DNA of 64,000 nt from Pseudomonadota bacterium. GTDB lineage: Bacteria > Pseudomonadota > Gammaproteobacteria > Pseudomonadales > UBA7434. The stretch lies in the NCBI GenBank assembly GCA_036344075.1, contig JAYYUJ010000047.1, positions 13,821-77,820 of the forward strand, read 5' to 3'. Within the stretch, counting starts at the first letter, position 1. The number at the start of each line of letters is the position of its first letter. The position numbers and the translations under genes were made by a program. Shown here piece after piece: positions 8,285-34,444 of this stretch. The notes beneath the pieces are model-generated. The model was not told the DNA's origin. It ran no database searches and saw nothing but the letters and a program-made list of their open reading frames with translations.

Positions 8285-8313
8285 TTTAAATTTATATAAA
8301 CAGATAGAGCCCA

Positions 8314-9630
8314 TCATAAAAAAATAAATTTACTCAAAAAAATTATAGTCAAAAAATATGCTCCGGCTGATATATCTTTGGCTTCTCCGGCAAATAACTT
8401 TATAAAAAAATAAGTCAAAAACCCTAATGCAATCCCATTTGCTATAGAGAATGTAAGGGGGATCATAATAATAGTTACTAGTGCGGGTATTATCTCCGTT
8501 GGTTTTGACCACTCTAGATACTCCATGCCCCCTAACATCAATAAAGCAACATAAATAAGTGCGCCAGAGGTCGCATATATTGGGACAGCACCGGCAATTG
8601 GTGAAAAGAAAATTGCAAGTAAGAAGAGGACGCCAACTACAACTGCAGTTAATCCGGTTCGCCCGCCTACCTCAACCCCTGATGAACTTTCAATATAGCT
8701 TGTAACTGGCGAGCATCCAAATAAAGTGCAAATCGCACTTGCACTACTATCTGACTTTAATGCTCGATCCATATTTTTATAAGTGCCATTTTCCAAGAAT
8801 TTTGCTCGGTCTGCGACCCCCAATAATGTTCCTGTTGTATCAAATAAATTCACAAAAAGAAAAGACGAGATAACAGCAATCATGGATATATCAAACGCAG
8901 CTTTAATATCAAGTTTTAGTAATATTGGCGTTATACTCGGTGGTGAAGATAAAAATCCGTTAAATGATATTAAGCCTAATAATTGAGCTATAAATGTAAT
9001 GGTGAGGATGCCAATTATAATCGCTCCCTGTATTTTTTTTATCGAAAGAATTGCAATTAAAATAAAACCTACAGCGGCTAGTAAGGTTTCAGGTTTTCTA
9101 ATGTCCCCTAGGGAGAGATAAGTAGAGGCGTTATCTATAATTAACCCGCCATTTTTTAGACCAATAAATCCAATAAATAGCCCAACACCAATCCCCATTG
9201 ATAATTTCATATTGTGAGGTATGCTTTCAATTATCCACCTTCTTATTGGTGTTATGCTCATTAAGAAAAATAGAATGCCTGCTAAGAAGACAGCTCCTAA
9301 TGCGGTCTCCCATTGGTAGCCCATTTCAATAACGACGGTGTAGGTAAAAAAAGCATTAAGCCCCATTCCAGGAGCTAATCCAACCGGCCAGTTAGCATAT
9401 AAACCCATTACGATGCAGGCTAACGATGCTGCTAAGCATGTCCCTACAAAACTTGCACCATAGTCCATACCACTTGCAGCCATCATTTGTGGATTGATAA
9501 AAATGATATAAGCCATTGTCATAAAGGTGGTAAACCCAGCAATAATCTCCGTTTTAACCGATGTGTTATTTTCTTTTAGCTTAAATTTTTTATTGACTAA
9601 GTCATACATAATGTACTTCTCTTTCTTCAA
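8314..9630 (-). CDS. Adenine/guanine/hypoxanthine permease (AzgA/PurP-type, NCS2-related)
   Basis: Polytopic 438 aa protein. N-terminus FKLKENNTSVKTEIIAGFTTFMTMAYIIFINP is the hallmark of this family. It is the last gene of the minus-strand operon 11597->8314. Confidence 0.85.
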   Translation of the reverse strand: MKKEKYIMYDLVNKKFKLKENNTSVKTEIIAGFTTFMTMAYIIFINPQMMAASGMDYGASFVGTCLAASLACIVMGLYANWPVGLAPGMGLNAFFTYTVVIEMGYQWETALGAVFLAGILFFLMSITPIRRWIIESIPHNMKLSMGIGVGLFIGFIGLKNGGLIIDNASTYLSLGDIRKPETLLAAVGFILIAILSIKKIQGAIIIGILTITFIAQLLGLISFNGFLSSPPSITPILLKLDIKAAFDISMIAVISSFLFVNLFDTTGTLLGVADRAKFLENGTYKNMDRALKSDSSASAICTLFGCSPVTSYIESSSGVEVGGRTGLTAVVVGVLFLLAIFFSPIAGAVPIYATSGALIYVALLMLGGMEYLEWSKPTEIIPALVTIIMIPLTFSIANGIALGFLTYFFIKLFAGEAKDISAGAYFLTIIFLSKFIFL

Positions 9631-9646
9631 AAAAATAAAAATAAAT

Positions 9647-9955
9647 TTATTCGCCTGTGATTGAATCTATAACTCCTTCAATGATGATCAGCTTTGATTT
9701 TGAGTATTTCTTTCTCATTGCATGAATATGGCTTAGTTCCTCTGAGTTCACCCATTTTGATGCTAACTCTTCATTGTCAAAAGCGATTACTACTAATCTT
9801 TCTGGAGCCCATTCACTATCGTGATAGATTATTTTCCCTGCTCTTATCAGATATCTACCCGAATATTTATGGACAGTTGGAGTTATCAATTTGAGATACT
9901 TTTGATATTCTTTTTGGTTTTTTACTTCGTTATCAACTATTACATATGTTGTCAT
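9647..9955 (-). CDS. DUF1330 domain protein
   Basis: 102 aa. The pattern YVIVDNEV...EYQKY...YSGRYLIRAGK...E..W.PERLVVIAF is typical of DUF1330. Confidence 0.7.
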   Translation of the reverse strand: MTTYVIVDNEVKNQKEYQKYLKLITPTVHKYSGRYLIRAGKIIYHDSEWAPERLVVIAFDNEELASKWVNSEELSHIHAMRKKYSKSKLIIIEGVIDSITGE

Positions 9956-9970
9956 ATAAAACCTATAGTT

Positions 9971-11410
9971 TTAAATTTTTCCTGTTTTAAAGAAAGGGTT
10001 ATTTTCTACTGGAGATGGTGAAGAAAAACCTTTTTTTTCAAGAAAATTTGCAACTCTCAAGCATAAGTCTTCCCGCCATGGCGGCGCAATAATTTGAACG
10101 CCAATAGGTAATTGACTCTCTTCATCAATTGTGGGAATTACACATGATGGTAAACCTATCGCTGAAATTGGTTGAGTAAAATAGCCGAGATTCGGCCTGA
10201 GAAGTTCCTCTTGTTGGTTAATAAGAATTTTTTTTTGGCCCATTGCCGGAGCTGTGCAAGGTGTCGCTGGTGCAATTATAATATCAACTTCATTGAATTT
10301 AGTTAGGAATTTTTCCTTGAACCATTTTCTAACTTGCTGTGATCTCACATACCAGCTTCCAGGTAGCATTGCTCCAGCTATAAATCTATCTCTTGTATCT
10401 GGGTCAAAATCGCTAAGATTTTTTTTAAGATGATCTCTATGCAATGAGCTGCCTTCTACATTTGTTATGATGTAGGCCGCCGCTCTTCCTTCGAGTGTTC
10501 CATCTATATTAACGGTGCTATTAACGGAAAGGGATTCACAGACTTTGTCTATAGCTTTTTTAGCCTGTGGAAAATTTTTTGTTGAAAAATAGCCGCCTGC
10601 TTTTGCGATCCTTAAATTTTTAATACCAAGACCTATTTGTGAATGAGTGTCAATGTTTTCTCTGTCAATACAAACATGATCTTTCTCATCAAAGCCTTGA
10701 ATAAGATCAAAACATTGAGATAAGTCAGGTATATTTCTGGCGAAAAGACCTAAATGGTCAAGGCTATCTACGAATGGATAAGTGCCTGTTCTAGGCAGAC
10801 GTCCATATGTAGGTTTTAGTCCGAAAATACCACAAAAGGAAGCCGGAACTCTTATGGAGCCATTTGTATCAGAACCTAATGAAATAGGGGCTATGCCTGC
10901 AGAGGTTGCAGATGCACTTCCAGATGAAGACCCCCCACTCATATAACCTAACTTATGGGGGTTCTGACAATTTCCAAAATGAATATTCTCGCCGGTAAAA
11001 TCATATGCAAACTCACCCATTGAGGTTGCACCAAGTAAAATAGCCCCTTCTCGTTCCATTCTTCTAATTAAAATAGCATCTTGTTTAGCGACTTTATTAT
11101 CATAGTTAATCTTACTACCAGCTAATGTTACATTACCTTTTATATCGAACAGATTTTTTACGGCAAAGGGGACGCCTGCAAGGGGGCCTAATTTACCACC
11201 ATTTTTGATTATTTTATCTATTTGTTGGGCTTTTTTTAAAGCTCTATCATCACAAATAAGAGAGTATGCGTTTAAAGTGGGATTTAAATTTCTTATTCGC
11301 TCTAGGAAGTATGAGGTTAATTCGACTGAGGTGATTTTTTTTTCTTTTATTAATAGAGTTAGTTCACTTATAGTTTTAAAATGTAAGGGTGCCTCAACCA
11401 TTTGTGTCAC
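9971..11410 (-). CDS. Amidase-signature enzyme, AtzE-family-like
   Basis: AS motif GGSSSGSASA...GSDTNGSIRVPA. AtzE-like strings VKNLFDIKGNVTLAGSKI, GEFAYDFTGENIHFG, YPFVDSLDHLG, IIAPATPCTAPAMG and PIGVQIIAPPWREDLCLR. Confidence 0.8.
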   Translation of the reverse strand: MTQMVEAPLHFKTISELTLLIKEKKITSVELTSYFLERIRNLNPTLNAYSLICDDRALKKAQQIDKIIKNGGKLGPLAGVPFAVKNLFDIKGNVTLAGSKINYDNKVAKQDAILIRRMEREGAILLGATSMGEFAYDFTGENIHFGNCQNPHKLGYMSGGSSSGSASATSAGIAPISLGSDTNGSIRVPASFCGIFGLKPTYGRLPRTGTYPFVDSLDHLGLFARNIPDLSQCFDLIQGFDEKDHVCIDRENIDTHSQIGLGIKNLRIAKAGGYFSTKNFPQAKKAIDKVCESLSVNSTVNIDGTLEGRAAAYIITNVEGSSLHRDHLKKNLSDFDPDTRDRFIAGAMLPGSWYVRSQQVRKWFKEKFLTKFNEVDIIIAPATPCTAPAMGQKKILINQQEELLRPNLGYFTQPISAIGLPSCVIPTIDEESQLPIGVQIIAPPWREDLCLRVANFLEKKGFSSPSPVENNPFFKTGKI

Positions 11411-11597
11411 CTGAGTTAAACACTGGAGCTAAATCTATATCATTAGAAGGCAGTGGGGCGTTTTGTAGGATTTTTGCCATTTTGGCTGCATTATTTATAT
11501 GGTGAACTACCCCATCATGATATTCAGGTTTAAAATCGATAGGTATTTCCTTAGACATGATCTCTATCAGTTTTGATGCATCAAGTTCATTATCCAT
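11394..11597 (-). CDS. AtzG-like / DUF4089 small subunit
   Basis: 67 aa, overlapping the amidase start by 17 nt. The pattern I.IDFKPEY..GVV.H...AAKMA..L...PLP...DLAPVF matches the small GatC-like partner found upstream of AtzE-family amidases. Confidence 0.6.
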   Translation of the reverse strand: MDNELDASKLIEIMSKEIPIDFKPEYHDGVVHHINNAAKMAKILQNAPLPSNDIDLAPVFNSGDTNG

Positions 11598-11770
11598 AAA
11601 ATTTATTTATTCCAAGGAAGAAGGCCTATACTATATAGCTTTGATTATTAGTTTAATATAACCAAATTAAAATTACTAATATCGAAAAAGCTGTATCTTC
11701 TTATGCTATAAAAGAGGTACGAAACATTTCTGAGTGATATTTTATCTTTTTGCTGGGGATATAAGAATTA

Positions 11771-12400
11771 ATGAAGAAGCCACATAAAAGCGAGATTCGT
11801 GAAAAAAACTCTCAGATAATTTTAGATGCAGCTGAGCATGAATTTTCAGCACATGGGTATCGTGGGACAAGTGTTCAGATGATAGCAGATCGCTCAGGCC
11901 TTCCGAAAGCTAATTTACACTATTATTATAAAAGTAAGAGTGCTTTGTATGGTGCTGTTTTAGAGAGAATTTTGGTCCTATGGAACACTGGTCTCGATGA
12001 TTTAAATGTTGAGAATGACCCCAGAGAAGTTTTAGAGAAGTTTATTAGGTTAAAAGTTTATTTATCATGCACTCGACCTATGGGTTCAAAATTATTTGCA
12101 ACTGAAATTATTTCAGGTGCACCATATCTGAGCGATTACATTCGTTCTGATATGCGCGATTTTATTGAAGATAAAGTAAAAATTATAGAAAAATGGATCC
12201 AACAAAAAAAAATCCTAGCTGTTGATCCGCTAAATTTAATATTTTTGATTTGGGCTTCGACGCAGCACTATGCTGATTTCAATACTCAAGTATTAATATT
12301 AATGAATAAAGAAAAGTATGAAGAGAGAGATATTAAATTAATAGCAGATAATTTAGTACAAATTATTCTGCGTGGGTGTGGTCTCATACCTGAAAAGTAA
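11771..12400 (+). CDS. TetR-family regulator, RutR-like
   Basis: The HTH region and C-terminal LIFLIWASTQHYADF are nearly identical to E. coli RutR LIFMIWASTQHYADF (from memory). KANLHYYYKSKSALY compares with RutR KTNLLYYFPSKEALY. Confidence 0.85.
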   Translation: MKKPHKSEIREKNSQIILDAAEHEFSAHGYRGTSVQMIADRSGLPKANLHYYYKSKSALYGAVLERILVLWNTGLDDLNVENDPREVLEKFIRLKVYLSCTRPMGSKLFATEIISGAPYLSDYIRSDMRDFIEDKVKIIEKWIQQKKILAVDPLNLIFLIWASTQHYADFNTQVLILMNKEKYEERDIKLIADNLVQIILRGCGLIPEK

Positions 12401-12407: not shown

Positions 12408-13790
12408 TTACTTTTTATATTTCTTTAAAAGTCTTTCAGCTTGATGATTTTGCTTCAATATAAGCTCTTTCTCGTCTAATTGTAGTAATTTACCTTCTGA
12501 AACAACCCATTTTCCTCCAACCATAACTCTATCGGCTCGGTTAGTGCCACTTAAGATCAGTGACGCTAATGGATCATGACTGCCAGAAAATTGTAGTTCA
12601 TCTTGTTTAAAAAGTGCTAGATCAGCTTTTTTTCCCACTGAAATTTCTCCAATATCTTGACGACCGATAATGTCAGCTGACCCTTTTGTAGCCCACTCCA
12701 ATGTTTTTCTATGTGAAATGTTTTCTGCGCCATATTTGAGCCGTTGTAACAATAATGCTTGTCTTACCTCGATAATCATGTTGCTAGCATCATTCGAGGC
12801 GGATCCATCAACACCAATACCTATCCTTGATCCCGCTCGAAGGAGTTCTTCTGTTTTGCAAATTCCTGATGCAAGAATCATATTTGATGTTGGGCAGTGG
12901 CTAATTCCAATTCCCGCTTCACCTAATCGTTTTATTTCAGAATTGTTGAAGTGAATACCATGAGCAAGCCAAGTATTATTATTTAGCCAGCCAACTTTTT
13001 CGAGATAATCAACTGGTTTACAGTCAAATTTTTCAAGACAGAAATTTTCTTCATCGATAGTTTCGGCTAAATGTGTATGAACTTTTACATTGTATTGCTT
13101 TGCAAGTTTAGCGGTTGACACCATTAATTCTTCGGAAACAGAGAAGGGAGAACATGGCGCTAGTGCGATTTGATTAAATGAGCCATCACTTTTATCATGG
13201 TATTTTTTGAGTAAGCGCTCACTATCCTCTAATATATTATCTTCACTCTGGACAACATGATCAGGCGGAAGTCCACCATCTTTTTCACCAAGTGACATCG
13301 ACCCACGACATAGGGTAACTCTTCCTCCCATTTGTTTGCTAGCAGCTATCTGGATATCTATTGCATGACTCATCTCTTCTGAAAAAATATAGTGGTGATC
13401 AACAGAAGTAGTGCAACCTGACAACAATAACTCTGCTATTGCTGTTTGTGTGGAGACGAAAATCATTTCATCATCAAGATTAGCCCATAGTGGATAAGAA
13501 CTTTCAAGCCAAGGGAAAAGTGCTTTATTTTGTGCATCGATGAATGCTCTTGAAAGCGTTTGGTAAAAATGGTGATGTGTATTTATTAATCCTGGTAAAA
13601 CAACGTATTCATTGGCATTAAATGTCTGATCGACTGGCAAACTTGGCGATCTGCCCATAGGAATTAATTCAGCAATCTTATCGCCCTCAATAACAATTCC
13701 TCCATTAGCATCCTGTTCGCTTATCATGAAAATAGATAAAGGTTCTTTAATCCAAAGTCTGTGCCCCTTTTGGCTTAAAGCGTCATTCAT
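12408..13790 (-). CDS. Amidohydrolase-superfamily deaminase, 8-oxoguanine-deaminase-like
   Basis: LWIKEPLSIF...VVLPGLINTHHHFYQTL, VHTHLAE and GVDGSASND. ATG 13790 (MNDALSQ) with AAGGA is preferred over 13859. Confidence 0.7.
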   Translation of the reverse strand: MNDALSQKGHRLWIKEPLSIFMISEQDANGGIVIEGDKIAELIPMGRSPSLPVDQTFNANEYVVLPGLINTHHHFYQTLSRAFIDAQNKALFPWLESSYPLWANLDDEMIFVSTQTAIAELLLSGCTTSVDHHYIFSEEMSHAIDIQIAASKQMGGRVTLCRGSMSLGEKDGGLPPDHVVQSEDNILEDSERLLKKYHDKSDGSFNQIALAPCSPFSVSEELMVSTAKLAKQYNVKVHTHLAETIDEENFCLEKFDCKPVDYLEKVGWLNNNTWLAHGIHFNNSEIKRLGEAGIGISHCPTSNMILASGICKTEELLRAGSRIGIGVDGSASNDASNMIIEVRQALLLQRLKYGAENISHRKTLEWATKGSADIIGRQDIGEISVGKKADLALFKQDELQFSGSHDPLASLILSGTNRADRVMVGGKWVVSEGKLLQLDEKELILKQNHQAERLLKKYKK

Positions 13791-13880
13791 AGCGATCCTT
13801 TTGAATTTAAATGTCAGTATTTGTAATGAAATATAATTTTTAGGGGTATCTATTACCAAAGATACAGCTTTTTTGCTATA

Positions 13881-13932: not shown

Positions 13933-15507
13933 ATGACATCTCATCTTTGTAAACCTGCTATTACCTCGCCTCACAAGTTAGCATCTGAGGCTGGTGCGGA
14001 CATTTTGCGTGAAGGTGGATCTGCTGTAGAGGCTGTTGTTGCTTGCGCTGCGGCTTTGACCGTAGTTTATCCACATATGAACTCTATTGGCGGTGATAGC
14101 TTTTGGTTGATCCAACCTAAAGGTAAAAAGCCTTTTGCGATAGATGCGAGCGGAAGATCTGCCGCAGCGGCAAATATGAATTTTTATGAGGGATATTCTT
14201 CGATACCTTCTAGGGGCGGCATTTCCTCATTGACCAGCGCTGGAACACTAAGTGGATGGAAGCTAGCCATTGATTTAGACGGAGACGCAAAATTACCCCT
14301 CTCTAGAATATTGTCTGCTGCAATCCAATATGCGAAGAATGGATTTACTGTTAGTAAAAGTCTAGAAAATTCCGCATCAATATTAGATAGTGTTACAGAA
14401 AAAAATAATTATTTTAATCAGCTTTATCAATCGAACGACAAAAGATTGTTTTATGGCGAAAATTTTACTAACAATGATTTGGCAAATACATTTATTCATC
14501 TTTCTAAAAAAGGCTTGAATGATTTTTATCAAGGTGAAATTGCCGAGCAATGTATAAAATCTTTAGTAAAAAACGGCAGCCCTTTAAGTACTGATGATCT
14601 CAAAAGTTATTCAGCTAAAAAAGTTGAACCACTAACTGTTCCTGTTCAGGGAGCTAAACTTTTTAACTTACCGGCACCAACACAAGGTGCAGCTTCACTA
14701 ATGATTTTAGCTATAGTCGATAGATTAAAAAAAGACCTTGAAAGTGAGTCGGATTTGATTCACTTAATAGTGGAGGCTACTAAAAGAGCCTTTATACTTC
14801 GCAATAAAAGTATAACAGATCCATCATTTACAGCTCCGACTTATGAATCAATGACGAGCTCTGAATGCATAATGAATGAGGCAAACAAAGTTAGTCTGTC
14901 CTCAGCGTTAGAATGGCCGTACTCATCAAGGGAGAGTGACACCGTTTGGGTTGGAGCAATCGATGCACAGGGGACACTTGTTAGCTTTATTCAAAGTATT
15001 TATTGGGAGTTTGGTTCAGGAATTGCTATTCCAGAGTTAGGTTTTGTTTGGAATAATCGTGGAACGAGTTTTAGTCTCGATAAAGATAATATCAATCATT
15101 TAAGGCCATCTGCAAAACCATTTCATACGCTAAATCCAGCTGTGGCTATTTTTGATGATGGCAGGAGATTAGCTTACGGATGTATGGGTGGTGAAGGGCA
15201 GCCTCAAACTCAAGCCGCAATATTTAGTCGATATGCATGGTTATCTGAGCCTTTAGAAACTGCTATTTCAAGGGGGAGGTGGCTATTAGGTCGGACATGG
15301 GGAAAGGAATCAAATAACCTAAAAATTGAGGCTGATATATTCGATGAAGTTAATGAGAGCCTCACTAACCTAGGCCATGATATTGAATGCGTGCCGAAAC
15401 GTTCGGAAATGATGGGTCATGCTGGGGCTATTTTAAGTGAAAGTTCCGGTGATTCATTTTCTGTGACGGATCCAAGGAGTGATGGTGCAGCTATAGTAAT
15501 TGATTAG
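13933..15507 (+). CDS. Gamma-glutamyltransferase-family Ntn hydrolase, no signal peptide (candidate HpxW-like oxamate amidohydrolase)
   Basis: 524 aa with a GGT-family N-terminus (SPHKLASEAGADILREGGSAVEAVVA...). The putative autoprocessing Thr is in SDTVWVGAID. The purine-catabolic context supports the HpxW-like reading. Confidence 0.75.
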   Translation: MTSHLCKPAITSPHKLASEAGADILREGGSAVEAVVACAAALTVVYPHMNSIGGDSFWLIQPKGKKPFAIDASGRSAAAANMNFYEGYSSIPSRGGISSLTSAGTLSGWKLAIDLDGDAKLPLSRILSAAIQYAKNGFTVSKSLENSASILDSVTEKNNYFNQLYQSNDKRLFYGENFTNNDLANTFIHLSKKGLNDFYQGEIAEQCIKSLVKNGSPLSTDDLKSYSAKKVEPLTVPVQGAKLFNLPAPTQGAASLMILAIVDRLKKDLESESDLIHLIVEATKRAFILRNKSITDPSFTAPTYESMTSSECIMNEANKVSLSSALEWPYSSRESDTVWVGAIDAQGTLVSFIQSIYWEFGSGIAIPELGFVWNNRGTSFSLDKDNINHLRPSAKPFHTLNPAVAIFDDGRRLAYGCMGGEGQPQTQAAIFSRYAWLSEPLETAISRGRWLLGRTWGKESNNLKIEADIFDEVNESLTNLGHDIECVPKRSEMMGHAGAILSESSGDSFSVTDPRSDGAAIVID

Positions 15508-15524: not shown

Positions 15525-16343
15525 TTGATAGATTTTTTTACCGTTTTACCTGTTGTTCTAGTTCTCATTTTCACTGGCATATTTGCTGGTGTTTTAGCGG
15601 GCTTATTGGGCGTAGGTGGCGGTATCGTTATTGTCCCTGTTTTATACTTTATATTTCAGGGCTTTGGGGTCTCCTCTGAGTCATCAATGGCGATTGCCGT
15701 GGCAACATCATTGGCCGTCATTGTGCCGACTTCGATATCCTCAATAAGATCTCATTTTAAAGCAGGAAACATTGACACTATGATCATGCGTCAATGGACA
15801 CCTTTTATATTTTTGTTTGCATTACTTGGAAGCTTATTTTCTAAGCAAATTGACGCCAAATTGATAATATCCTTATTTGGCATCATTGCTTGTTTTGTTA
15901 GTATAAATATGATTTTTAAAAATTCTTTTACGTTCACTTTTAGGCAACTACCTAGTCGCTTTATACAAACCATGATGGCATCAGTAGTAGGGTTCCTTTC
16001 TGTAATGATAGGTATCGGTGGTGGTACTTTGGGAGTTCCTATTTTAAGTTCGTTAAATTTAGCGACGCACAAAGCTGTTGGGACAGCTGCATGCTTTGGA
16101 TTATTTATTGCTTTGCCAGGCGCTTTAATGGCTCTTTTTTTGTCTGATACACCAAATGATGCGCTTATAGGACATGTGGGTCTTGTAAGTTTGCCAGCGT
16201 TGTTTCTGATAGCGCCATTGACTGTTATTTTCGCACCTATAGGTGTCAAATTAGGAAAAATTCTGAACCAAAATCAGTTGAAAAAGGTATTTGCAGTAAC
16301 CTTATTTTTTACTGGTTTGAGGATGTTGTATAAGGCTTATTAA
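15525..16343 (+). CDS. TauE/SafE (DUF81) family anion transporter
   Basis: 272 aa, about 8 TM segments, duplicated GLLGVGGG / IGIGGGTLGVP motifs, TTG start. Confidence 0.8.
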   Translation: MIDFFTVLPVVLVLIFTGIFAGVLAGLLGVGGGIVIVPVLYFIFQGFGVSSESSMAIAVATSLAVIVPTSISSIRSHFKAGNIDTMIMRQWTPFIFLFALLGSLFSKQIDAKLIISLFGIIACFVSINMIFKNSFTFTFRQLPSRFIQTMMASVVGFLSVMIGIGGGTLGVPILSSLNLATHKAVGTAACFGLFIALPGALMALFLSDTPNDALIGHVGLVSLPALFLIAPLTVIFAPIGVKLGKILNQNQLKKVFAVTLFFTGLRMLYKAY

Positions 16344-23164: not shown

Positions 23165-24012
23165 CTTAAAGGTATCACTTCATGACTTAGGTTTAATTCT
23201 TTTTTTAAGGTTTTCCAATCTAAAAGATTTGAATCCTTTCGATTTCCGGTGAGGGATAGTAGATATGCAGCAACAGAAATAGCAATTTCTTTTGGCTTTT
23301 TGCTCTTTATGCCTTCAATTCCAATGGGGCATTGAAAACGATTTACATCATCAGGATGCAAGCCATCATTTTTTAATCGGGCGCGGAATTTTCTAGATTT
23401 ATTACTTGAGCCAATTAAACCGACATAGGACCATCTCCAATCATCGAGTAGTTTTTTCATTAATAGGTAATCTAATTCGTGATCATGTGTTAAAATTAAA
23501 ACATAACTTCCTTCATCTAGATTGTTTATTTCATTATCTGGCTTTTCAATGTAGTCTGGCATTCTTTTACTACTAACTGCCGATGAGAACGATTTCCTCG
23601 AATCAAACCATGATATTTCAAAGTCCAGGTCTCCTATAATTTGTACTAATTCATGGGCTATATGCCCGCCACCAAAGATAGCAAGAGGAATTTTGTTAAA
23701 AATAAATGTTTCAATTAACACAGTCATGGTACCACCACAACATTGTTTGCACGATGAAGACAGATAAAATTCTTTTATCTCTTGCGAAGCGCAATTATTG
23801 TTAAGCAATTCTCGAGCGCGATTAATAATTTGAAACTCTAATTTCCCACCACCTATTGAGTCATAAGTATTCTCAGTTGTGATTACCATCTTTGAACCTG
23901 ACCCTCTAGGTGATGATCCTGATGACGATATTACCGTCGCAAGTGCATGCGGATGATTAAGCTTTGTAAGTTTTGAAATTACATCACTCCAAGGTGTCGA
24001 TAGCATAGTCAT
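23161..24012 (-). CDS. xdhC: Xanthine dehydrogenase accessory protein XdhC
   Basis: 283 aa with GGGHIAHELVQI in a Rossmann-like segment, positioned directly after xdhB. Confidence 0.8.
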   Translation of the reverse strand: MTMLSTPWSDVISKLTKLNHPHALATVISSSGSSPRGSGSKMVITTENTYDSIGGGKLEFQIINRARELLNNNCASQEIKEFYLSSSCKQCCGGTMTVLIETFIFNKIPLAIFGGGHIAHELVQIIGDLDFEISWFDSRKSFSSAVSSKRMPDYIEKPDNEINNLDEGSYVLILTHDHELDYLLMKKLLDDWRWSYVGLIGSSNKSRKFRARLKNDGLHPDDVNRFQCPIGIEGIKSKKPKEIAISVAAYLLSLTGNRKDSNLLDWKTLKKELNLSHEVIPLR

Positions 24013-26361: not shown

Positions 26362-27853
26362 TAGGTGATTTCTTTAAAGGGAAAATAATCGAATTACTTT
26401 TAAACACATCTGTTGGTTTTAAACCATTTATCTCTAGAATAGCTCTCTTGATGAGATTCTTAGCCATAGACTTCCGATATGATTTTGAACCTCGAACATC
26501 ACTTATTGGGTTTATTTCAGAATCAATGATGCTATTAATATCGTCAAAACTTAAGTCATCAATTCTTTTGTCAATCAAAAAAGCTTCAGTTTTTGTCGCT
26601 CTTATAGGAATTTCTGCGACACCACCAAAAGCTAACTTTGAATCTATAATTTTTTGGTTGCTTAATTTAAGAGTGATGGCCATCATTATTGTAGAGATAT
26701 CATCTTCATATCGTTTTGAAATTTTGAAAAAACTTGAGTGCTCTTCCATTGATTCTTTCGGTACTTTGATATTAGAAATATACTCGTTTGGCGCCAGTGA
26801 TGTGACTCGGTAGCTTTTATAAAAGTCTTTTATAGGTATCATTCTTTCCTTATTGGAAGAATCCTTAATTATAATTTCTGCATTCCAACTAAGTAAAATT
26901 GGTGGAAGATCAGCAATTGGAGATGCGTTAGCGATATTTCCGCCTACGGTGCCACGATTCCTTATTTGCGTGGAACCAATTTGCCCAATAAATTTTCTGA
27001 ATTTGAGAGGCAACAATTCATTTTTTTCTAGCTGCTCGTATGTAACACAGGGGCCAATGTGTATATGATCATCAATTAATAAAATTTGCTTCAATGAATC
27101 AATGCGACTTATATCAATGATCGATATAAATTCTTCAAAATCTTGAGTTATTTTTAATGTCTTATCCGTTCCGCCAGCGAAGATTTCTGGTTTAGGAATA
27201 TCTTTCAACAGTTTTTGCAGTTCATCTTCATTTCTTGGGATTAAATAATTTTTATTAGCGCTGGTTAACGCGTCCTCTTTAGGAAACGATTCGATGATTA
27301 GATTTTGGTTGTGATGAGTCAATTTTTCAGTTATTGCTTTCTCAGCTGCTTTGAGTATTGACTTATAGCCAGTACAGCGGCACAGATTACCTGAAATAGC
27401 ATCTAAAGTTTTGTCCAGATCAAATTTTTTTTCGTTATAGATTTTTTGATTTTCAAGCAGGCATGTAAGCGACATAACGAAGCCAGGCGTACAGAACCCA
27501 CATTGCGATCCATGACACTCAACCATTGATTGTTGAATAGCGTTCAGCTGATTTTTTTTTAAGCTGATAGTTTGGTGAGAATCATTGTTTTTGGTGCTTG
27601 AATCCAGAGCCTCAACAGTGAAAATATTTTTCTCTGCAAAGCTTCCTAATAAACTGATGCAAGCATTTACGGTTTCGAATCCTCCTTTTTCATTGTTTGA
27701 AATGACAGTGCATGCGCCGCAATCACCTGACGCACATCCTTCCTTAGTTCCCTTTAAACCACAATCATGCCTGATAAAATCTAGGAGTGTCTGATTTGGG
27801 TCAAAGCTTTCGTCTCGAATTGAGTAGCATTTTCCATTTAAAAAGAGCTTCAC
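26348..27853 (-). CDS. xdhA: Xanthine dehydrogenase small subunit (2Fe-2S + FAD)
   Basis: GCASGDCGACTV, CHGSQCGFCTPG, CRCTGY, and FAD-domain RNRGTVGGNIANASP. Confidence 0.95.
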   Translation of the reverse strand: MKLFLNGKCYSIRDESFDPNQTLLDFIRHDCGLKGTKEGCASGDCGACTVISNNEKGGFETVNACISLLGSFAEKNIFTVEALDSSTKNNDSHQTISLKKNQLNAIQQSMVECHGSQCGFCTPGFVMSLTCLLENQKIYNEKKFDLDKTLDAISGNLCRCTGYKSILKAAEKAITEKLTHHNQNLIIESFPKEDALTSANKNYLIPRNEDELQKLLKDIPKPEIFAGGTDKTLKITQDFEEFISIIDISRIDSLKQILLIDDHIHIGPCVTYEQLEKNELLPLKFRKFIGQIGSTQIRNRGTVGGNIANASPIADLPPILLSWNAEIIIKDSSNKERMIPIKDFYKSYRVTSLAPNEYISNIKVPKESMEEHSSFFKISKRYEDDISTIMMAITLKLSNQKIIDSKLAFGGVAEIPIRATKTEAFLIDKRIDDLSFDDINSIIDSEINPISDVRGSKSYRKSMAKNLIKRAILEINGLKPTDVFKSNSIIFPLKKSPNAKN

Positions 27854-28141: not shown

Positions 28142-29053
28142 ATGGTTACGAGTCAAAACAAATACCCTAGGGACATGATAGGTTATGGAGCGAAGCTACC
28201 TGATATAAAGCTCCCTGGGGATGCGAGGATTGCAGTTCAATTTGTCTTGAATTATGAGGAGGGCGGAGAAAATTCTGTTCTCCATGGTGATGGAGCCTCA
28301 GAGACCTTTTTATCAGAAATTATCGGTGCAAGAGCTTATGAAGATCGTCATATGAGTATGGAGTCTCTCTACGAATATGGAAGTCGTGCAGGGTTTTGGC
28401 GTGCCCATGATTTTTTTGTTGAGCAAAATATACCATTAACAGTTTTTGGTGTTGGTATGGCTTTAGAGCGAAATCCTGAAGCTGTTAGAGCCATGCTTAA
28501 TGCTAACTGGGAAATTGCCTGTCACGGGTATCGCTGGATTGATCATCAATTTATGCCAAGAGAGGTCGAAAGAAATCAAATAGCAAAAGCAATGGAGACA
28601 CATTTAGCTGTAACAGGAGCGCTTCCTGTCGGTTGGTACACAGGTAGAGATAGTCCAAATACTCGAACCCTTGTATTAGAGCATGAAAATATTCTATATG
28701 ATTCTGATTCCTATGCAGATGACCTTCCATATTGGGTAAAAGGTCCAAAAGCTCCACATCTTGTTATTCCATATACGTTAGACACCAATGATATGCGCTT
28801 TGCTACGGCTCAGGGGTTTAATTCAGGTGAACAATTCTTTCAATATATCAAAGACGCTTTCGATATCCTTTATGAGGAGGGCGAAAAGACACCTAAGCTT
28901 TTAAACATTGGTTTGCATTGCAGAATTATTGGACGTCCAGCTAGATTCAAAGCGCTCAAAAAGTTCGTTTCGTATATTAAATCAAAATCTAATGTCTGGA
29001 TTTGTAAGCGTGAGGACATTGCCTATCATTGGCATGAGAATCATCAACCATAA
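28142..29053 (+). CDS. puuE: Allantoinase PuuE (polysaccharide-deacetylase fold)
   Basis: YPRDMIGYG..., IAVQFVLNYEEGGENSVLHGD, and HGYRWIDH. Confidence 0.85.
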   Translation: MVTSQNKYPRDMIGYGAKLPDIKLPGDARIAVQFVLNYEEGGENSVLHGDGASETFLSEIIGARAYEDRHMSMESLYEYGSRAGFWRAHDFFVEQNIPLTVFGVGMALERNPEAVRAMLNANWEIACHGYRWIDHQFMPREVERNQIAKAMETHLAVTGALPVGWYTGRDSPNTRTLVLEHENILYDSDSYADDLPYWVKGPKAPHLVIPYTLDTNDMRFATAQGFNSGEQFFQYIKDAFDILYEEGEKTPKLLNIGLHCRIIGRPARFKALKKFVSYIKSKSNVWICKREDIAYHWHENHQP

Positions 29054-29226: not shown

Positions 29227-31782
29227 GTGAACTTACCTAGCTCGGCTAAAAATTTCGGCACCATTTTGGGACTTAGCATCTCTATTTGCTCCATAAGTGC
29301 TCACACTTCTGCTCAACAAATTGAAGAAATTACTGTTCAGGCAGTAAAAGACTTCTATTCCATCATGCCTGAAGAAAATAGTGAAAGTACGTTTGGTTTA
29401 AGCAAAAGCTTGGCAGAAACACCTCGCTCAATTACTGAAGTAAGAGCCGATTTGGTTGAGAAGTTTGTTCTGAGGAGTGTTGATGACCTGGTCAGACTAA
29501 CACCCGGAGCCTTCACAAGCTCATTTTTTGGCATTAAAGGTGCCATGGATATTAGGGGAGAGCCTGCTGATAACTATTTTAGGGGATTCCGAAGAATTGC
29601 TAACCCCGGCGCATTCAACACTATCGTTAGAGGCGCAGAAAAACTTGAAATCATGAGAGGACCAGTCTCTCCTCTATATGGCAGTGGTAGTGTCGGCGGT
29701 CAATTAAACTATACGCCTAAATCCTCGAAGGTTAAGGGTGATAAGTATATTGACGACATTACTGGCGGAGCCTCACTGACAGTGGGCTCATACCAGCAAC
29801 AAATCATCTCTGGTAACTTAGGTGCGCCCTTCATGCTTGGTGATAAGGAGGCGGGTGTCCATATCTTTGCCGAGTTAGAAGACTCTGAATCTTTTTTTGA
29901 TGGTTATTATCCCAGTAGTTTTCTCCTCCAAACTGCATTTGATGTAGACTGGAGTGATGAAACGAAGGTTGAGTTTGGATTCCAGTATCAGACCTCAGAC
30001 AGTATTCAGGTCCCAGGTTGGACACGTGTCACTCAGGACCTGATAGATAATGGTACTTATATCACAGGTGCCCCTCAGGAATTGAATTCAACAAACTTAA
30101 TTGGATTTGATACCCTATTGCCCCAAGAGTCTGCATTCATAGCACCATTTGCACCAGGGTTTTTGAATAATGCTTTCTCCAATACCGGTAGCTTCTGTAG
30201 CCGAGCAAGTAATGGAAATGAAAATGCCGTTTATGATGGTATTGATCTTTTCTGCCCGGGTGGATTTGGTAATTGGCTCGCAGATCCAGTGAATAATACA
30301 AATCCATTTCAGCTAACAAATGTGGGTACTGCGCAACTTGACCACGATACTACTTTTATTGATACGGTTGACTATGCTGACACAACTGCTTTCACAGCCT
30401 ACCTTGATATAACTCACGATCTTGATAACGGCATGATTTGGAAAAATGAAATCTTTTACGATTATCTCGAACACACCAAATACCAGAGCTGGGGTTTCAC
30501 AGCGTTTTACCCAGAGGTCGATACGTTTGAGCTGCGATCAAGTTTGACATTCAGTCTTGATGGCGATGCATGGACTTCTGAGAACATTGTCGGTGCTAAT
30601 TACCGCTATGAAGATCTTGAAATGTGGCATGCATGGTTTGATGAAACTTTCGACTTTCGTGACATGACTGTTGGCCCAACGCCTAATGACCGTATATCAC
30701 CGGCAACTTTTGATCCTTATTCAGCTGGAGCAACTTTAACTTATGACGCAAACGGTGATGTATCTGGTGTAGATGGCACTTTACTCCGTAACTTTAATGA
30801 GGTCCACTTATCAACTAATGAAAATATTGGCATCTTCGCCATGAGTGATATCTCTATCGATAAGTTCAATATACTACTTGGTGCTCGCTATGACGTATTC
30901 AATGTAGAATCTGAGGATGGCTGGGTTACATATTTAGGCCAGGCACAAGGGCAAGGCGTTATTGACGGCGATGAGGATGCCTTTAGTTACAATGTCAGTG
31001 TGTCATACACAGATGAAGGCTTTACTCCTTATGTGACTTATGCAGAATCTAATTCTCTAAGCCCCAACCAGGTCGGTGGCATTATACCCGCTACTGTTGA
31101 GAATGGTGAATTTGTTCAAGACTCTGAGCTGGCTGAGGTTGGTATTAAGTTCCAGAATGATTTTCTTTATGCCTCATTGTCCTACTATGACCAAGAAAAA
31201 TCTTTCCGTGATGACCAAACTAACGCCCTCGTTGCAGTATATGGTGATGGTGTTGAGTTGGAAGTAAGGGCATTAATCAATGATAGTTTTTCTATCCTAG
31301 GCACAGTTAGTTCAAGTGATACAACTGAAATATGTGATGGCTGCTTGGCTATTATGAATAGTGCTGACTTTGCCGAACAAAATGGATTGACTCCTGATCA
31401 AGTGTACGGCGGTAGAATAGGTGGTAACCGATCAACATTTGCAGCTCCTGGTAGTGAACTTGACCGAGGTGGCTTGCCTGATTTGGTTGCTAGTTTATAT
31501 GCTACATATACAACTTATTTTGAAGAATCGGAGCTTACAAGCAGTCTAGGCTTCACTTATGTCGATGAGGCATATAACGATGTCTTTGAGACAATTCTTC
31601 TGCCTGACTATACTATAGTCAATGGATCAATCAGTTATACAAAAGATGGTTTAACAGCGCTTCTTCAGGCAAACAATTTATTGGATGAAGAATATTATAC
31701 CAATGCTGACTTGTTTGATTCTGTTGTTATTAAGCCATCAGAGGGTAGAACATTCTCATTCATGTTATCCTATGAGTTCTAA
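29227..31782 (+). CDS. TonB-dependent receptor
   Basis: GTG start after AGGGGA, a signal peptide, plug motifs IEEITVQA and RGPVSPLYGSGSVGGQLNY, and C-terminal ...LSYEF. Confidence 0.85.
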   Translation: MNLPSSAKNFGTILGLSISICSISAHTSAQQIEEITVQAVKDFYSIMPEENSESTFGLSKSLAETPRSITEVRADLVEKFVLRSVDDLVRLTPGAFTSSFFGIKGAMDIRGEPADNYFRGFRRIANPGAFNTIVRGAEKLEIMRGPVSPLYGSGSVGGQLNYTPKSSKVKGDKYIDDITGGASLTVGSYQQQIISGNLGAPFMLGDKEAGVHIFAELEDSESFFDGYYPSSFLLQTAFDVDWSDETKVEFGFQYQTSDSIQVPGWTRVTQDLIDNGTYITGAPQELNSTNLIGFDTLLPQESAFIAPFAPGFLNNAFSNTGSFCSRASNGNENAVYDGIDLFCPGGFGNWLADPVNNTNPFQLTNVGTAQLDHDTTFIDTVDYADTTAFTAYLDITHDLDNGMIWKNEIFYDYLEHTKYQSWGFTAFYPEVDTFELRSSLTFSLDGDAWTSENIVGANYRYEDLEMWHAWFDETFDFRDMTVGPTPNDRISPATFDPYSAGATLTYDANGDVSGVDGTLLRNFNEVHLSTNENIGIFAMSDISIDKFNILLGARYDVFNVESEDGWVTYLGQAQGQGVIDGDEDAFSYNVSVSYTDEGFTPYVTYAESNSLSPNQVGGIIPATVENGEFVQDSELAEVGIKFQNDFLYASLSYYDQEKSFRDDQTNALVAVYGDGVELEVRALINDSFSILGTVSSSDTTEICDGCLAIMNSADFAEQNGLTPDQVYGGRIGGNRSTFAAPGSELDRGGLPDLVASLYATYTTYFEESELTSSLGFTYVDEAYNDVFETILLPDYTIVNGSISYTKDGLTALLQANNLLDEEYYTNADLFDSVVIKPSEGRTFSFMLSYEF

Positions 31783-31807: not shown

Positions 31808-31838
31808 GGGGTAAGCTGTTTATCGAGCAGCTTGCCCC
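31808..31838 (+). terminator. Hairpin downstream of the TBDR gene (weak terminator candidate)
   Basis: GGGGTAAGCTG-N9-CAGCTTGCCCC forms an 11-bp stem with one G-U pair. The T-rich run is not immediately adjacent. Confidence 0.35.
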
Positions 31839-31920
31839 ATTCCTAAAAATTTCTTTTTTGTTTTCTTGAAAAATTTTCGAACCAAGAGAGGGCAGAGTTC
31901 TTTACTGGGAAGAATATAAA

Positions 31921-33294
31921 ATGAATAATTACTCCAGTGATATACCAAGTAATAGCAACTCACCTCCAAGTCTTCTTTATGGGCTGAATGACAAGCCCAG
32001 TAAGGGGACAGCACTTCTCACAGGTTTTCAGCATCTATTAGCGGTTATTGGCGGCATCTTAACTGCACCGCTTGTGATTGCGCTAGGGATGGGCTTGTCA
32101 CTGGAACAAACAAACTACCTTATCACTTCTGCTTTAGTAATTTCAGGAGTTGCTACCAGTATTCAAATATCAAAAATAGGCATTATTGGCTCTGGATTAT
32201 TATCTATTCAGGGCACCAGTTTTACCTTTATGGGGGCAATTATTTTTTCATTCTATCAATTGCCATCTAGTATGAGTTCAGATGAAAAATTGGCCACTAT
32301 TTTAGGAAGTTGTATAGTAGCTTCTCTTGTAATGGCAGTGCTTGCTTATAATATAAAAAAAATTAAAAAAGTATTTTCACCTGCCGTTCTTGGTGCAACA
32401 ATAGTAATGTTAGGGATGAATTTGGTTTGGACAACGCTTCAAAACTTAGTAAGAGAATTCAATAATCAAAGTGCTTTAGACCTTGGTTGGACTGTTATTT
32501 TGTTAAGTAGCCTAGTCTTTTTTTTAACCCTGTTGATGTCACTGTCAAAAAATCAATGGGCAAAGCTCTCGAGCATCATGATAGGCTTATTCTTTGGCTA
32601 TGCCATTGCAATAGGTCTTGGGATGGTTAACTTCTCAAAATTATCAACCCTTGATAATACCGCCATACCAGTTCCATTCAATTTTGGGGTAGGGTTTGAT
32701 TTTGGAGTCTTTCTGATTCTTCTGCCAGTCTTCATAGTCTCTGCTACCGAATCAATAGGCGACTTAACGGCAACAAGTAAATTAAGTGGATTAGAAACGA
32801 CAGGGGATAATTATTGGGATCGTATTAGAGGGGGAGTCATCGGTGATTCAATCAACTCTCTTTTAGCAGGCTTTTTCGCGACATTTCCAAACACCACATT
32901 CAGTCAAAATTGTGGTGTTATACAACTAACAGGTATCGCTAGTCGATACATTGGTTATATAACCGCTTTCCTCTTAGTAGTTCTGGGTTTATTCCCCAAG
33001 ATAGGTGGCTTATTTCAAATCATTCCGCCCTCAGTAATATACGGTAGTACTCTGCTGATGTTTTCATTGGTGATTTTTGCAGGGTTAAATATTTTAAGAA
33101 GCAGTGATATTGGAAAGCGAGGGGTACTTATTTCATGCGTGTCTATAATCTGCGGGTGGCTGATAAGCTCAAATGTTGATAACCTAGAATCATTACCAGA
33201 AACATTAATGATGTTACTTAGCTTTCCTGTCTCGACGACGGCATTTATAGCAATGCTTATGGAGTTAACATTGCCAAAGATTAGTAAAAATTAA
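31921..33294 (+). CDS. NCS2/NAT-family nucleobase permease (xanthine/urate type)
   Basis: 457 aa polytopic protein with LTGFQHLL and the NAT signature SQNCGVIQLTG (QNxGxxxxTG). Confidence 0.85.
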   Translation: MNNYSSDIPSNSNSPPSLLYGLNDKPSKGTALLTGFQHLLAVIGGILTAPLVIALGMGLSLEQTNYLITSALVISGVATSIQISKIGIIGSGLLSIQGTSFTFMGAIIFSFYQLPSSMSSDEKLATILGSCIVASLVMAVLAYNIKKIKKVFSPAVLGATIVMLGMNLVWTTLQNLVREFNNQSALDLGWTVILLSSLVFFLTLLMSLSKNQWAKLSSIMIGLFFGYAIAIGLGMVNFSKLSTLDNTAIPVPFNFGVGFDFGVFLILLPVFIVSATESIGDLTATSKLSGLETTGDNYWDRIRGGVIGDSINSLLAGFFATFPNTTFSQNCGVIQLTGIASRYIGYITAFLLVVLGLFPKIGGLFQIIPPSVIYGSTLLMFSLVIFAGLNILRSSDIGKRGVLISCVSIICGWLISSNVDNLESLPETLMMLLSFPVSTTAFIAMLMELTLPKISKN

Positions 33295-33360
33295 TAGCTG
33301 AATTCAAGTTCTATTAACAAATATTACAATCAATCATTGCTTTTAGAAGGATATTAAAAA

Positions 33361-34407
33361 TTGTTTCGTTTCCTTTCGTTATTGATACTGCCTTTTTTCG
33401 TAGTAAGTTGCTCTGATACTGAGAATAATTTTAACGCCCCAATTCCAATAAAAGTTGTTGTTGTAACTATGTTCGATAGAGGTGTTGATGGCGAGTTTTA
33501 TCGTTGGCAAGATAGGAGAAAGTTGGATACTGTCTTCGAAGCCCCTAATATGCATCATGATATTCATGTTAATCTGGAGACTGGTGTTATGGGCATTGTT
33601 ACCGGGATGGGGACTGCTAATTCGGCCGCATCAATTATGGCATTGGGTTTGGATTCAAGATTTGATTTAACCTCGGCTTACTGGTTGGTTGTTGGCATTG
33701 CCGGTTTTGATCCAGAGGATGCTTCTTTAGGTTCAGTCGCCATCGCAGATTTTTTAGTTGATGGCGATTTGGCTCATGAAATTGATTCTAGAGAAATCCC
33801 GGATGATTGGTCAGATGGTTTCTTCCCATTATTTAGTAAAGGGCCAAATGATGAAAATCGAAAAAATTATCAAATAGGCGAGGTTTTTCAACTCAAAAAA
33901 ACTTTTGTTGACTGGGCCTATAATCTTACTAATTCGATAGAATTATATGATGATGAAAAACTGTCTTTGATTAGAGATTTATATGTTGACTATCCGCAAG
34001 CTGTTAGAAAGCCTTTTGTACTTAGAGGCGATCAACTTGCAGCAATGACTTTTTGGCACGGGAATATGTTGAATGATTGGGCTAATAGGTGGGTAGATTA
34101 TTGGTCTAAGGGTGAAGGCGAATTTGTTTCTTCCGCTATGGAGGACACTGGAACATTTCAGTCCTTAGATTACCTTGATAGGGGAGGGTATGTAGATAAA
34201 GACAGATTGTTAGTAATTAGGACAGCCAGCAACTTCACAATTCCTGCGCCTAACGTGAGTGCAGTTGATAATTTGCTTAATGAACAGCATGGTGGTTATA
34301 CTGGTCTTGAGGTTGCGTTAGAAAATGGCTACATTGTTGGGAGTAAAATAATTGATGAGCTCTTAACTGACTGGCAAATATATAAAAATAATATTCCATC
34401 TATTTAG
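33361..34407 (+). CDS. NUP-family (annotated purine nucleoside permease) lipoprotein
   Basis: TTG start after AAGGA and a lipobox FFVVSC. The pattern IKVVVVTMF...GE...W is typical of PF06516-type proteins (from memory). Confidence 0.65.
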   Translation: MFRFLSLLILPFFVVSCSDTENNFNAPIPIKVVVVTMFDRGVDGEFYRWQDRRKLDTVFEAPNMHHDIHVNLETGVMGIVTGMGTANSAASIMALGLDSRFDLTSAYWLVVGIAGFDPEDASLGSVAIADFLVDGDLAHEIDSREIPDDWSDGFFPLFSKGPNDENRKNYQIGEVFQLKKTFVDWAYNLTNSIELYDDEKLSLIRDLYVDYPQAVRKPFVLRGDQLAAMTFWHGNMLNDWANRWVDYWSKGEGEFVSSAMEDTGTFQSLDYLDRGGYVDKDRLLVIRTASNFTIPAPNVSAVDNLLNEQHGGYTGLEVALENGYIVGSKIIDELLTDWQIYKNNIPSI

Positions 34408-34444
34408 ATACCCATAAAACTATTCAATTTTTCAGCCTGATGAT

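Follow-up and report, generated by a model that had tools for sequence, protein, structure and literature searches.

Flexible islands of Alteromonas, Prochlorococcus, and SAR11 occupy a fixed position between core genes, and homologous recombination of their flanks is the means of their exchange. Known purine-utilization clusters join xdhABC to puuD, hiuH, uraD, and puuE in Pseudomonas-type pathways or consist of the hpx genes in Klebsiella. Both kinds of system have counterparts in the DNA described here, a 64,000-nucleotide stretch of contig JAYYUJ010000047.1 (the window) from a metagenome-assembled genome (MAG) of an uncultured marine gammaproteobacterium, whose relatives are labeled Cellvibrionales, Pseudomonadales, or Halieaceae. 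In this window a luxE-like gene and a luxC-family gene are separated by a block of 22 genes, most of them for purine uptake and catabolism. We put the probability at about three in four that the region is a strain-variable metabolic island that replaced the resident luxC, with homologous recombination in the flanking genes as the route of exchange.

The locus resembles the marine flexible islands in its fixed insertion point in all carriers, its presence or absence among relatives that are 92–96% identical, its lack of integrase, tRNA, and repeats, its shifted composition and discordant divergence, and its metabolic nutrient-uptake cargo, which includes TonB-dependent receptors; unlike them, it lies inside an operon and carries a replacement copy of an operon gene, luxC. 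As a strain-variable metabolic island, it belongs to a known kind of element and not to a new class, and is set apart by its intra-operon site and the replacement operon gene. As to the cargo, purine use is patchy among ocean microbes, and horizontal transfer has been invoked in the partitioning of this trait (Sci Adv 2025, PMC11698098). The marine purine-use gene scheme given there comprises NCS2 permeases, a phosphoribosyltransferase, xanthine dehydrogenase, PuuD, hiuH, uraD, and PuuE; the main text does not contain the word "gammaproteobacteria" and does not use "island" or "hypervariable," and a TonB-dependent-receptor-linked version was not looked up there (PMC11698098).

Empty and island forms of the luxE-luxC-SDR locus

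A first-pass annotation had placed the stop of the luxE-like gene at 8284, the start of luxC at 34445, and 22 genes between them. Open reading frames (ORFs) and Pfam matches bear out this layout, and the 26.2 kb of 8285–34444 do hold 22 genes when a 67-amino-acid AtzG-like gene at 11406–11606 is counted in. Families were scored with Pfam and NCBIfam profiles on the window ORFs, NCBIfam calls being judged against their curated cut-offs. The features that define the edges of the island are:

6872–8284 (+): LuxE-like adenylating enzyme, a backbone gene (ORF 6797/6872–8284; the ATG at 6872 is the likely true start, giving 470 amino acids)
8071–8284 (+): putative left recombination zone at the luxE 3′ end, donor-like in island carriers and missing the terminal Gly codon
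34445–35893 (+): LuxC-family acyl-CoA reductase, a foreign (xenologous) allele traveling with the island (Pfam PF05893, 137.5 bits)
36093–38489 (+): TonB-dependent receptor 2 (TBDR2; Pfam Plug and TonB barrel; GC 37.8%), whose presence varies among island carriers
38498–38531 (+): terminator-like hairpin, a 14-pair stem followed by a T run (consensus scan only)
38549–39115 (+): purine phosphoribosyltransferase-like protein (PRTase), the predicted last island gene (Pfam Pribosyltran; weak NCBIfam XPRT and HGPRT matches)
39167–40099 (+): SDR-family reductase, third gene of a luxE-luxC-SDR triad (Pfam adh_short); the backbone resumes at ~39190

The expectation that luxE and luxC are usually neighbors, and that relatives lacking the block have them adjacent, held. 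A genome scan with LuxE (GTDB species representatives) returned five loci and a metagenome scan with LuxC returned 76; LuxE lies directly upstream of LuxC in 57 of the 59 loci with readable upstream sequence, including 60–68% GC contigs (soil) at just 60–65% protein identity. The two non-tandem loci are L056, in which LuxE is downstream, and L006, the window's sister with the same block. The luxE-luxC spacing in five relatives is a 4-bp overlap (L001, L004), direct abutment (L002), 5 bp (L087), and 42 bp (L003). An SDR homologue immediately follows LuxC in 35 of 65 loci, and the conserved unit is therefore the luxE-luxC-SDR triad, which extends from marine gammaproteobacteria to the 60–68% GC contigs. 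Comparison of these loci supports a tandem luxE-luxC arrangement as ancestral and the block as a derived, probably acquired, insertion.

The block is absent from L007 and L087. In L007, a LuxE that is 97.4% identical to that of the window at the amino acid level is directly followed by a LuxC at 82.6%. The empty locus of L087 (19.5 kb) reads DUF3604, AMP-ligase, Aldedh, alkyl-sulfatase-type metallo-beta-lactamase (MBL), LuxE, LuxC, SDR, Pkinase, PP2C, abhydrolase, DUF1295, hyp344, and hyp240. The junction of luxE with the first permease gene of the block recurs, colinear well into the block, at 91–94.5% identity in the independent assemblies L082–L086, five records from four sample sets (ERZ841394, ERZ908504, ERZ908571, Logan ERR598993, and GCA_001757005), and the right junction, between the gene for a purine nucleoside permease of the NUP family and luxC, recurs in L006 (from CENX01179287). 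Ocean metagenomes assembled independently of the window contain both junctions, and so the structure is not chimeric. Island interiors, compared over 10 kb each, align almost without gaps (window with L082/L083, 93.5%; window with L006, 90.6%). All carriers (L082–L086 and L006) thus have their junctions in common, while the non-carriers L007 and L087 are 93–96% identical to the window in the flanks. Flank identity is higher between the window and the non-carriers L087 and L007 (~96%) than between the window and carrier L082 (~94%), and island presence is therefore out of step with flank phylogeny. Two forms of the locus occur in the population, an empty form (luxE-luxC-SDR; L087, L007) and an island form.

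Two further arrangements were seen among relatives. In L002 (10723–13431) and L003 (6422–9176), a sulfotransferase gene and a DUF1214-like gene lie between luxC and SDR. L005, which has the highest identity in the genome scan (96–98% at the amino acid level), breaks inside luxE at residue 204 (L005 7189–7795), and presence of the island is not scorable there; strain heterogeneity at the locus may account for the break.

The luxC allele and the limits of the island

Between the window and L087, nucleotide identity is 92.9–96.4% to the left of the island (AMP-ligase, Aldedh, MBL, and the 5′ part of luxE) and 91.3, 90.6, and 94.6% in the SDR, abhydrolase, and hyp344 genes to its right, vs. 75.9% in luxC. 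Synonymous divergence (dS) is 0.12–0.40 in six flanking genes (SDR, 0.38) and 2.9, which is saturated, in luxC, where the ratio of nonsynonymous to synonymous divergence (dN/dS) is 0.04. Identity of 75.9% and saturated dS between flanks at 91–96% mark luxC as a foreign (xenologous) allele that belongs to the island. Protein comparisons likewise point to the window-type luxC as the odd allele. The window LuxC shows 77–83% identity to the L007, L002, L008, and L003 proteins, and these share 83–90% among themselves. Against L002, L008, and L003, L007 gives 90.2, 85.6, and 84.0% for LuxC and 87.8, 86.9, and 81.9% for LuxE; the window LuxE lies at the same distances as that of L007 (86.9, 86.7, and 81.6%), and the window LuxC is 4–7 points lower than the window LuxE (81.7, 79.6, and 77.3%). 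At the nucleotide level the window luxC is 95.9% identical to that of carrier L006. The first-pass annotation had proposed that deletion of 8285–34444 would leave the original tandem pair; given a foreign luxC, which is not the native right border, such a deletion would join the resident luxE to the foreign gene and not restore the original pair.

The composition of the window changes accordingly beyond luxC. GC content is 43.8% in 1–8284, 37.3% in 8285–34444, 38.5% in 34445–39166, and 44.4% in 39167–64000, and mean GC at third codon positions (GC3) is 0.30 in 24 genes of 8285–39166 vs. 0.40 in 22 backbone genes (Mann-Whitney p = 6e-7). Tetranucleotide profiles of 4-kb segments cluster 8–40 kb together and 1–8 kb with 40–64 kb, in a comparison that is partly circular, the reference profiles having been built from the same partition. 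The block is compositionally distinct, as had been claimed, by a smaller margin than the hand count suggested: flank lines of 60 nucleotides were said to lie mostly at 45–58% GC, and only about half of them do, with means of 44%. Nor is there a compositional edge at 34444. The 34.4–39.2 kb stretch goes with the block, tetranucleotides group with the block to about 40 kb, and the contrast does not stop at luxC.

Identity profiles, in which the history of luxC is discordant with that of the flanks and divergence shifts inside luxE and inside SDR, suggest an island of ~31 kb, from about 8.1 kb (the last ~200 nucleotides of luxE) to about 39.19 kb (SDR codon 8). The ~26-kb block first taken as the unit would thus indeed be acquired, as part of a longer segment (about 8.1–39.19 kb) that adds luxC, TBDR2, and PRTase; non-carriers have 1.45 kb of luxC in place of this segment. 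On the left, a MAFFT alignment of luxE between carriers and non-carriers gives 95–97% identity over the first ~1200 nucleotides, then 90%, then 82–86% over the last ~230, a portion in which carriers are 95% alike among themselves; carriers end in NFMR[G/A/F]FE before the stop codon and non-carriers in FMQGFEG. On the right, the alignment of the window with L087 is lost upstream of about SDR codon 8 (~39190), after which identity is 87–96%. Spacers of 29 bp (luxE to the first permease gene) and 37 bp (NUP to luxC) border the block. TBDR2 and PRTase are not found in the block-free relatives, and PRTase is absent from L087 and L008. A PRTase homologue (66.8% identical) lies beside homologues of NUP and the permease in the purine module of L089, and purine genes therefore stand on both sides of luxC.

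TBDR2 itself is missing in carrier L006, where the alignment jumps from window position 36199 to 38531 (L006 11750–11760), the end of the 38498–38531 hairpin.

The first-pass annotation had found no integrase, transposase, tRNA, or convincing junction repeat, and the searches agree. Among 46 non-nested ORFs of at least 100 amino acids and the 67-amino-acid AtzG-like gene, no Pfam match to an integrase or transposase was obtained; scans of the window returned no tRNA or tmRNA and no Rfam match, riboswitches included; the junctions share no k-mer of at least 12 nucleotides, and a search for direct and inverted repeats there gave only 9–11-nucleotide chance matches. Megablast of the window against plasmids gave no match. 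The integrase, tRNA/att site, and direct repeats of a classical integrase-mediated genomic island are therefore all lacking in this window.

Origin of the island form and alternative explanations

The acquisition mechanism had been called unclear, and the insertion does look derived, with homologous recombination in luxE and SDR as the best explanation. The donor would be a lower-GC relative of the same order in which luxC already lay between purine genes. Homologous recombination would have brought the segment in and would serve its exchange, the crossovers falling in the luxE 3′ end and the SDR 5′ end; such recombination requires no integrase, tRNA, or repeats, hence the absence of mobility genes. 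The nearest relatives of the NUP protein outside its own cluster are 62–71% identical, and several of them (those at 62–67%) are named Halieaceae, a distance similar to that of LuxE and LuxC from Halieaceae-labeled sequences. L089 and L090, which carry the nearest NUP relatives outside the cluster, were considered as donors and rejected: they have 57–62% GC, a different and smaller purine module, and no adjacent luxC.

The region around the island is variable in several other respects. The window DUF3604 gene (11–1900, −, running past the left end) is only 77.5–77.8% identical in nucleotides to those of L082, L087, and L005, and the next 6 kb are at 91–96%; because L082, L087, and L005 are 94–95% alike in this gene, the baseline is ~94% and the window DUF3604 is a private outlier; a divergent allele seems to have replaced it in a second event, independent of the island. 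A Ser/Thr kinase and PP2C pair that lies between SDR and abhydrolase in L006, L008, and L087 is deleted in the window, where 40109–40174 (−) is a 22-codon remnant of the PP2C phosphatase. Carrier L006 joins abhydrolase straight to an SDR297/P450 region (L006 16205–16216; window 41260–57970), which makes the ~16.7 kb from hyp344 to a LysR gene another variable segment; genes for a third TonB receptor, an MFS transporter, an aminotransferase, and an aldehyde dehydrogenase lie within it. Against the window, L008 shows 90% identity at 44277–48719 and 72–78% elsewhere, which suggests recent exchange between more distant lineages. The genes hyp245 and hyp280 (window 42762–44382, +; 245 and 280 amino acids, no Pfam match) are tandem paralogues that match the same single-copy stretch in L008 and L087, at 76–79 and ~50% amino acid identity, respectively.

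Five other histories were weighed. The simplest is an insertion of the 26.2-kb purine block exactly at a resident luxE-luxC junction, with luxC as the original partner: both genes are intact, the block fills the interval from the luxE stop to the luxC start with short spacers on either side, and relatives carry the tandem pair. We consider it unlikely, since the genes on either side of luxC show 91–96% identity and dS of 0.12–0.40 against its 75.9% and 2.9, and since TBDR2 and PRTase, to the right of luxC, are also missing in block-free relatives and share the block's composition. A reversed direction is improbable to a like extent; here the window luxC would be the resident and L007 and L087 would have replaced theirs, or recent gene flow would have homogenized the flanks so that luxC gives the true genome-wide distance. 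The mosaic nature of the region, with DUF3604 at 77.5% to L082, L087, and L005 and L008 at 90% in 44.3–48.7 kb and 72–78% elsewhere, is in keeping with it; however, the 94–95% identity of carrier L082 and non-carriers L087 and L005 to one another in DUF3604 sets a baseline of about 94%, on which ground the idea that the flanks, not luxC, are anomalous was rejected, and the LuxC of L007 tracks its LuxE, whereas the window LuxC falls below the window LuxE. Rapid divergence of luxC in place once uncoupled from luxE, through relaxed or new selection and AT drift, might be suspected from its GC3 (0.346 in the window vs. 0.389 in L087) and the loss of close (5-bp) spacing to luxE, but it is very improbable: relaxed selection raises dN and not dS, and a dN/dS of 0.04 with saturated synonymous sites, next to neighbors with dS of at most 0.4, excludes fast evolution in place.

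That the split arrangement is ancestral, and that relatives lost the block by precise deletion, gained no supporting point in this analysis and is still less plausible, being contradicted by the tandem order across very distant lineages and by the different luxC allele of block-free relatives, which deletion from a carrier cannot yield. An assembly or binning chimera, two organisms being joined at 8.28 kb and at 34.44 or 39.17 kb, would fit the MAG source, the compositional changes at the junctions, and the break inside luxE of L005, the closest GTDB representative; with the left junction present in four sample sets and the right one in CENX01179287, we give it almost no credence. Recombinational exchange of an island that includes luxC is thus preferred, and several points weigh against it. 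A dS near 3 is saturated and shows only a much older divergence, giving no date; the flank comparison spans a few kb, and with the window DUF3604 at 77% the region is mosaic and the baseline approximate; divergence at the luxE 3′ end is 82–90% in identity, not 75%, and is based on ~230 nucleotides. The database searched held no donor lineage: no LuxC outside the window's own cluster is closer than 82%, so that the donor is unsampled and its gene order inferred, not seen. The model does not account for the first arrival of purine genes on both sides of luxC, and function and co-transcription are read from family assignments and pattern scans.

Gene content, predicted functions, and implications

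The LuxC protein belongs to its family by a wide margin (PF05893 cut-off 21 bits; model positions 3–401 of 401) and scores far below the bioluminescence equivalog NCBIfam NF052251 (135.5 bits, cut-off 750). No match to PF00296 (luciferase-like) was found in the Pfam scan of the window, indicating no luxAB; luxD was not specifically looked for. The LuxE-family assignment made by the first-pass annotation is weak at the sequence level, where the protein scores 19.4–19.6 bits against a PF04443 cut-off of 24.9 and matches model positions 234–368 only, and the gene is therefore called luxE-like here. The assignment is borne out indirectly: PF04443 is matched by 18 of 20 LuxE-like homologues at E ≤ 0.01 (best E, 1.4e-6), and the AlphaFold2 (AF2) model (pLDDT 78.8, pTM 0.81) has PaaK1, PaaK2, ClxA, and BT_0428 as its top Foldseek matches (probability 1.0, TM about 0.5), which points to a predicted two-domain ANL/PaaK-like adenylating fold. 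A PDB sequence search with the protein, which is 100% identical to MEE3241380.1, returned nothing significant. The LuxC/LuxE pair of the luxCDABE bioluminescence operon likewise joins a PF05893 reductase to an ANL/PaaK-like adenylating partner, nearly always adjacent; unlike luxCDABE, the window triad has an SDR as conserved third partner, and its neighbors are an alkyl-sulfatase-type MBL, an aldehyde dehydrogenase, and an acyl-CoA ligase. These three, with a DUF3604 gene that is partial and runs past the left end, make up the left flank on the minus strand; the MBL gene (5195–6706) is the divergent neighbor of luxE. The triad may serve to produce or recycle fatty alcohols or alkyl sulfates.

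The 22 genes of the block are:

8314–9630 (−): NCS2 nucleobase permease 1 (Pfam Xan_ur_permease, 151 bits; 62.5% identical to a homologue in the L089 purine module)
9647–9955 (−): DUF1330 protein (Pfam PF07045)
9971–11410 (−): AtzE-family amidase (NCBIfam NF006631, 615.6 bits vs. cut-off 461)
11406–11606 (−): AtzG-like small subunit, 67 amino acids (Pfam PF13318, 43.3 bits; gene call also in L082–L084)
11771–12400 (+): TetR-family regulator with RutR/YcdC-type C-terminal domain (Pfam TetR_N and TetR_C_3; NCBIfam RutR, 173 bits, under cut-off)
12408–13859 (−): 8-oxoguanine deaminase (NCBIfam NF006055, 663.7 bits vs. cut-off 532)
13933–15507 (+): gamma-glutamyltranspeptidase (GGT)-family Ntn hydrolase (Pfam G_glu_transpept, 387 bits; NCBIfam GGT under cut-off)
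15525–16343 (+): TauE/SafE-family membrane protein (Pfam PF01925)
16375–17631 (+): class-V aminotransferase (Pfam Aminotran_5; no NCBIfam model at its cut-off)
17637–18887 (+): allantoate amidohydrolase (NCBIfam NF006775, 543.6 bits vs. cut-off 479)
18884–19213 (+): 5-hydroxyisourate (HIU) hydrolase, HIUase (Pfam Transthyretin/HIUase, 119.8 bits)
19225–20541 (+): guanine deaminase (NCBIfam TIGR02967, 544 bits vs. cut-off 375)
20554–21738 (+): PuuD-type membrane urate oxidase (Pfam Urate_ox_N, 405 bits)
21764–22663 (−): 2-oxoglutarate (2OG)-Fe(II) oxygenase (Pfam 2OG-FeII_Oxy and DIOX_N)
22667–23164 (−): 2-oxo-4-hydroxy-4-carboxy-5-ureidoimidazoline (OHCU) decarboxylase (Pfam PF09349, 115 bits)
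23161–24012 (−): XdhC maturation factor (NCBIfam TIGR02964, 229 bits vs. cut-off 161.6)
24028–26361 (−): xanthine dehydrogenase Mo-binding subunit XdhB (NCBIfam TIGR02965, 1141.5 bits vs. cut-off 849.5)
26348–27853 (−): xanthine dehydrogenase small subunit XdhA (Pfam Fer2, Fer2_2, FAD_binding_5, and CO_deh_flav_C; NCBIfam TIGR02963, 433 bits, just under cut-off 467)
28142–29053 (+): allantoinase PuuE (NCBIfam TIGR03212, 489.8 bits vs. cut-off 424.6)
29227–31782 (+): TonB-dependent receptor 1 (Pfam Plug; NCBIfam TonB-dependent models under cut-offs)
31921–33294 (+): NCS2 permease 2, xanthine-permease-like (Pfam Xan_ur_permease, 248 bits; NCBIfam ncs2, 296.6 bits vs. cut-off 291.8)
33361–34407 (+): NUP-family purine nucleoside permease (Pfam PF06516, 360 bits)

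XdhB, XdhC, PuuE, allantoate amidohydrolase, guanine deaminase, 8-oxoguanine deaminase, and AtzE exceed their NCBIfam cut-offs, and PuuD, HIUase, and OHCU decarboxylase their Pfam cut-offs. The defining members of a purine catabolic cluster (xdhABC, urate oxidase, HIU hydrolase, OHCU decarboxylase, allantoinase, and allantoate amidohydrolase) are all encoded. The view that all 22 genes concern purines is secure for about 16 and plausible for others, the GGT-family protein, AtzE/AtzG, class-V aminotransferase, and DUF1330 protein being plausible late-pathway enzymes; the TauE and 2OG-Fe(II) oxygenase genes have no assigned role. The amidase gene, the overlapping AtzG-like gene, and the DUF1330 gene (9647–11606, −) form a trio within the purine cluster, and the AtzE/AtzG-like pair resembles the 1-carboxybiuret hydrolase pair of the cyanuric-acid pathway. 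As in known purine clusters, the enzymes span guanine/xanthine to urate, allantoin, and allantoate; unlike those clusters, the island adds two TonB-dependent receptors, the NUP permease, the AtzE/AtzG-like subunits, DUF1330, TauE, and the 2OG oxygenase, all in putative roles. The GGT-family hydrolase is possibly an HpxW-like oxamate amidohydrolase and the class-V aminotransferase possibly a ureidoglycine aminotransferase. The gene names hpxW and hpxY occur in PMC12625717. Oxalurate and oxamate could be substrates of the GGT-family and amidase enzymes, much as in the Hpx route.

As the protein families suggest, carriers would import purines and nucleosides and break them down to ammonia to obtain nitrogen. 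The TonB-dependent receptors would serve uptake across the outer membrane and the NCS2 and NUP permeases uptake across the inner membrane; the phosphoribosyltransferase would salvage purines, and oxidation and ring opening would yield allantoate and eventually ammonia, with a RutR-like repressor in control. Co-transcription of luxC with the purine uptake genes is probable: the gene begins 37 bp downstream of NUP in the same orientation, and the first terminator-like site after it is at 38498. Promoter and terminator scans of the window did not exceed shuffle expectation except for the long hairpin at 38498–38531, and give weak hints only. Because luxC is under strong purifying selection, it presumably still works with luxE in trans.

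Alternatively, both intergenic junctions of the triad might be recurrent landing sites for cargo, with the foreign luxC rewired to nitrogen or purine regulation or to a new role, as the purine genes on both sides of the window luxC and the sulfotransferase and DUF1214-like genes of L002 and L003 could suggest. We regard this as doubtful; if true, it would make the tie between luxC and the purine genes a functional link and not a passenger relationship.

Exchange of a metabolic island carrying its own luxC has consequences for the reading of such loci. A seemingly intact insertion border, here luxC, can be imported cargo, which calls for caution in reasoning from synteny, and the luxE-like/luxC-like pair of a widespread triad tolerates physical separation. 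The breakpoints are placed with a precision of a few hundred bases, and mobile-element machinery plays no part. The locus adds a gammaproteobacterial, TonB-dependent-receptor-linked case to the patchy use of purines in the ocean, in which a whole nitrogen-scavenging pathway, comprising predicted uptake across both membranes, salvage, catabolism, and a regulator, behaves as a presence/absence allele in a wild marine population.

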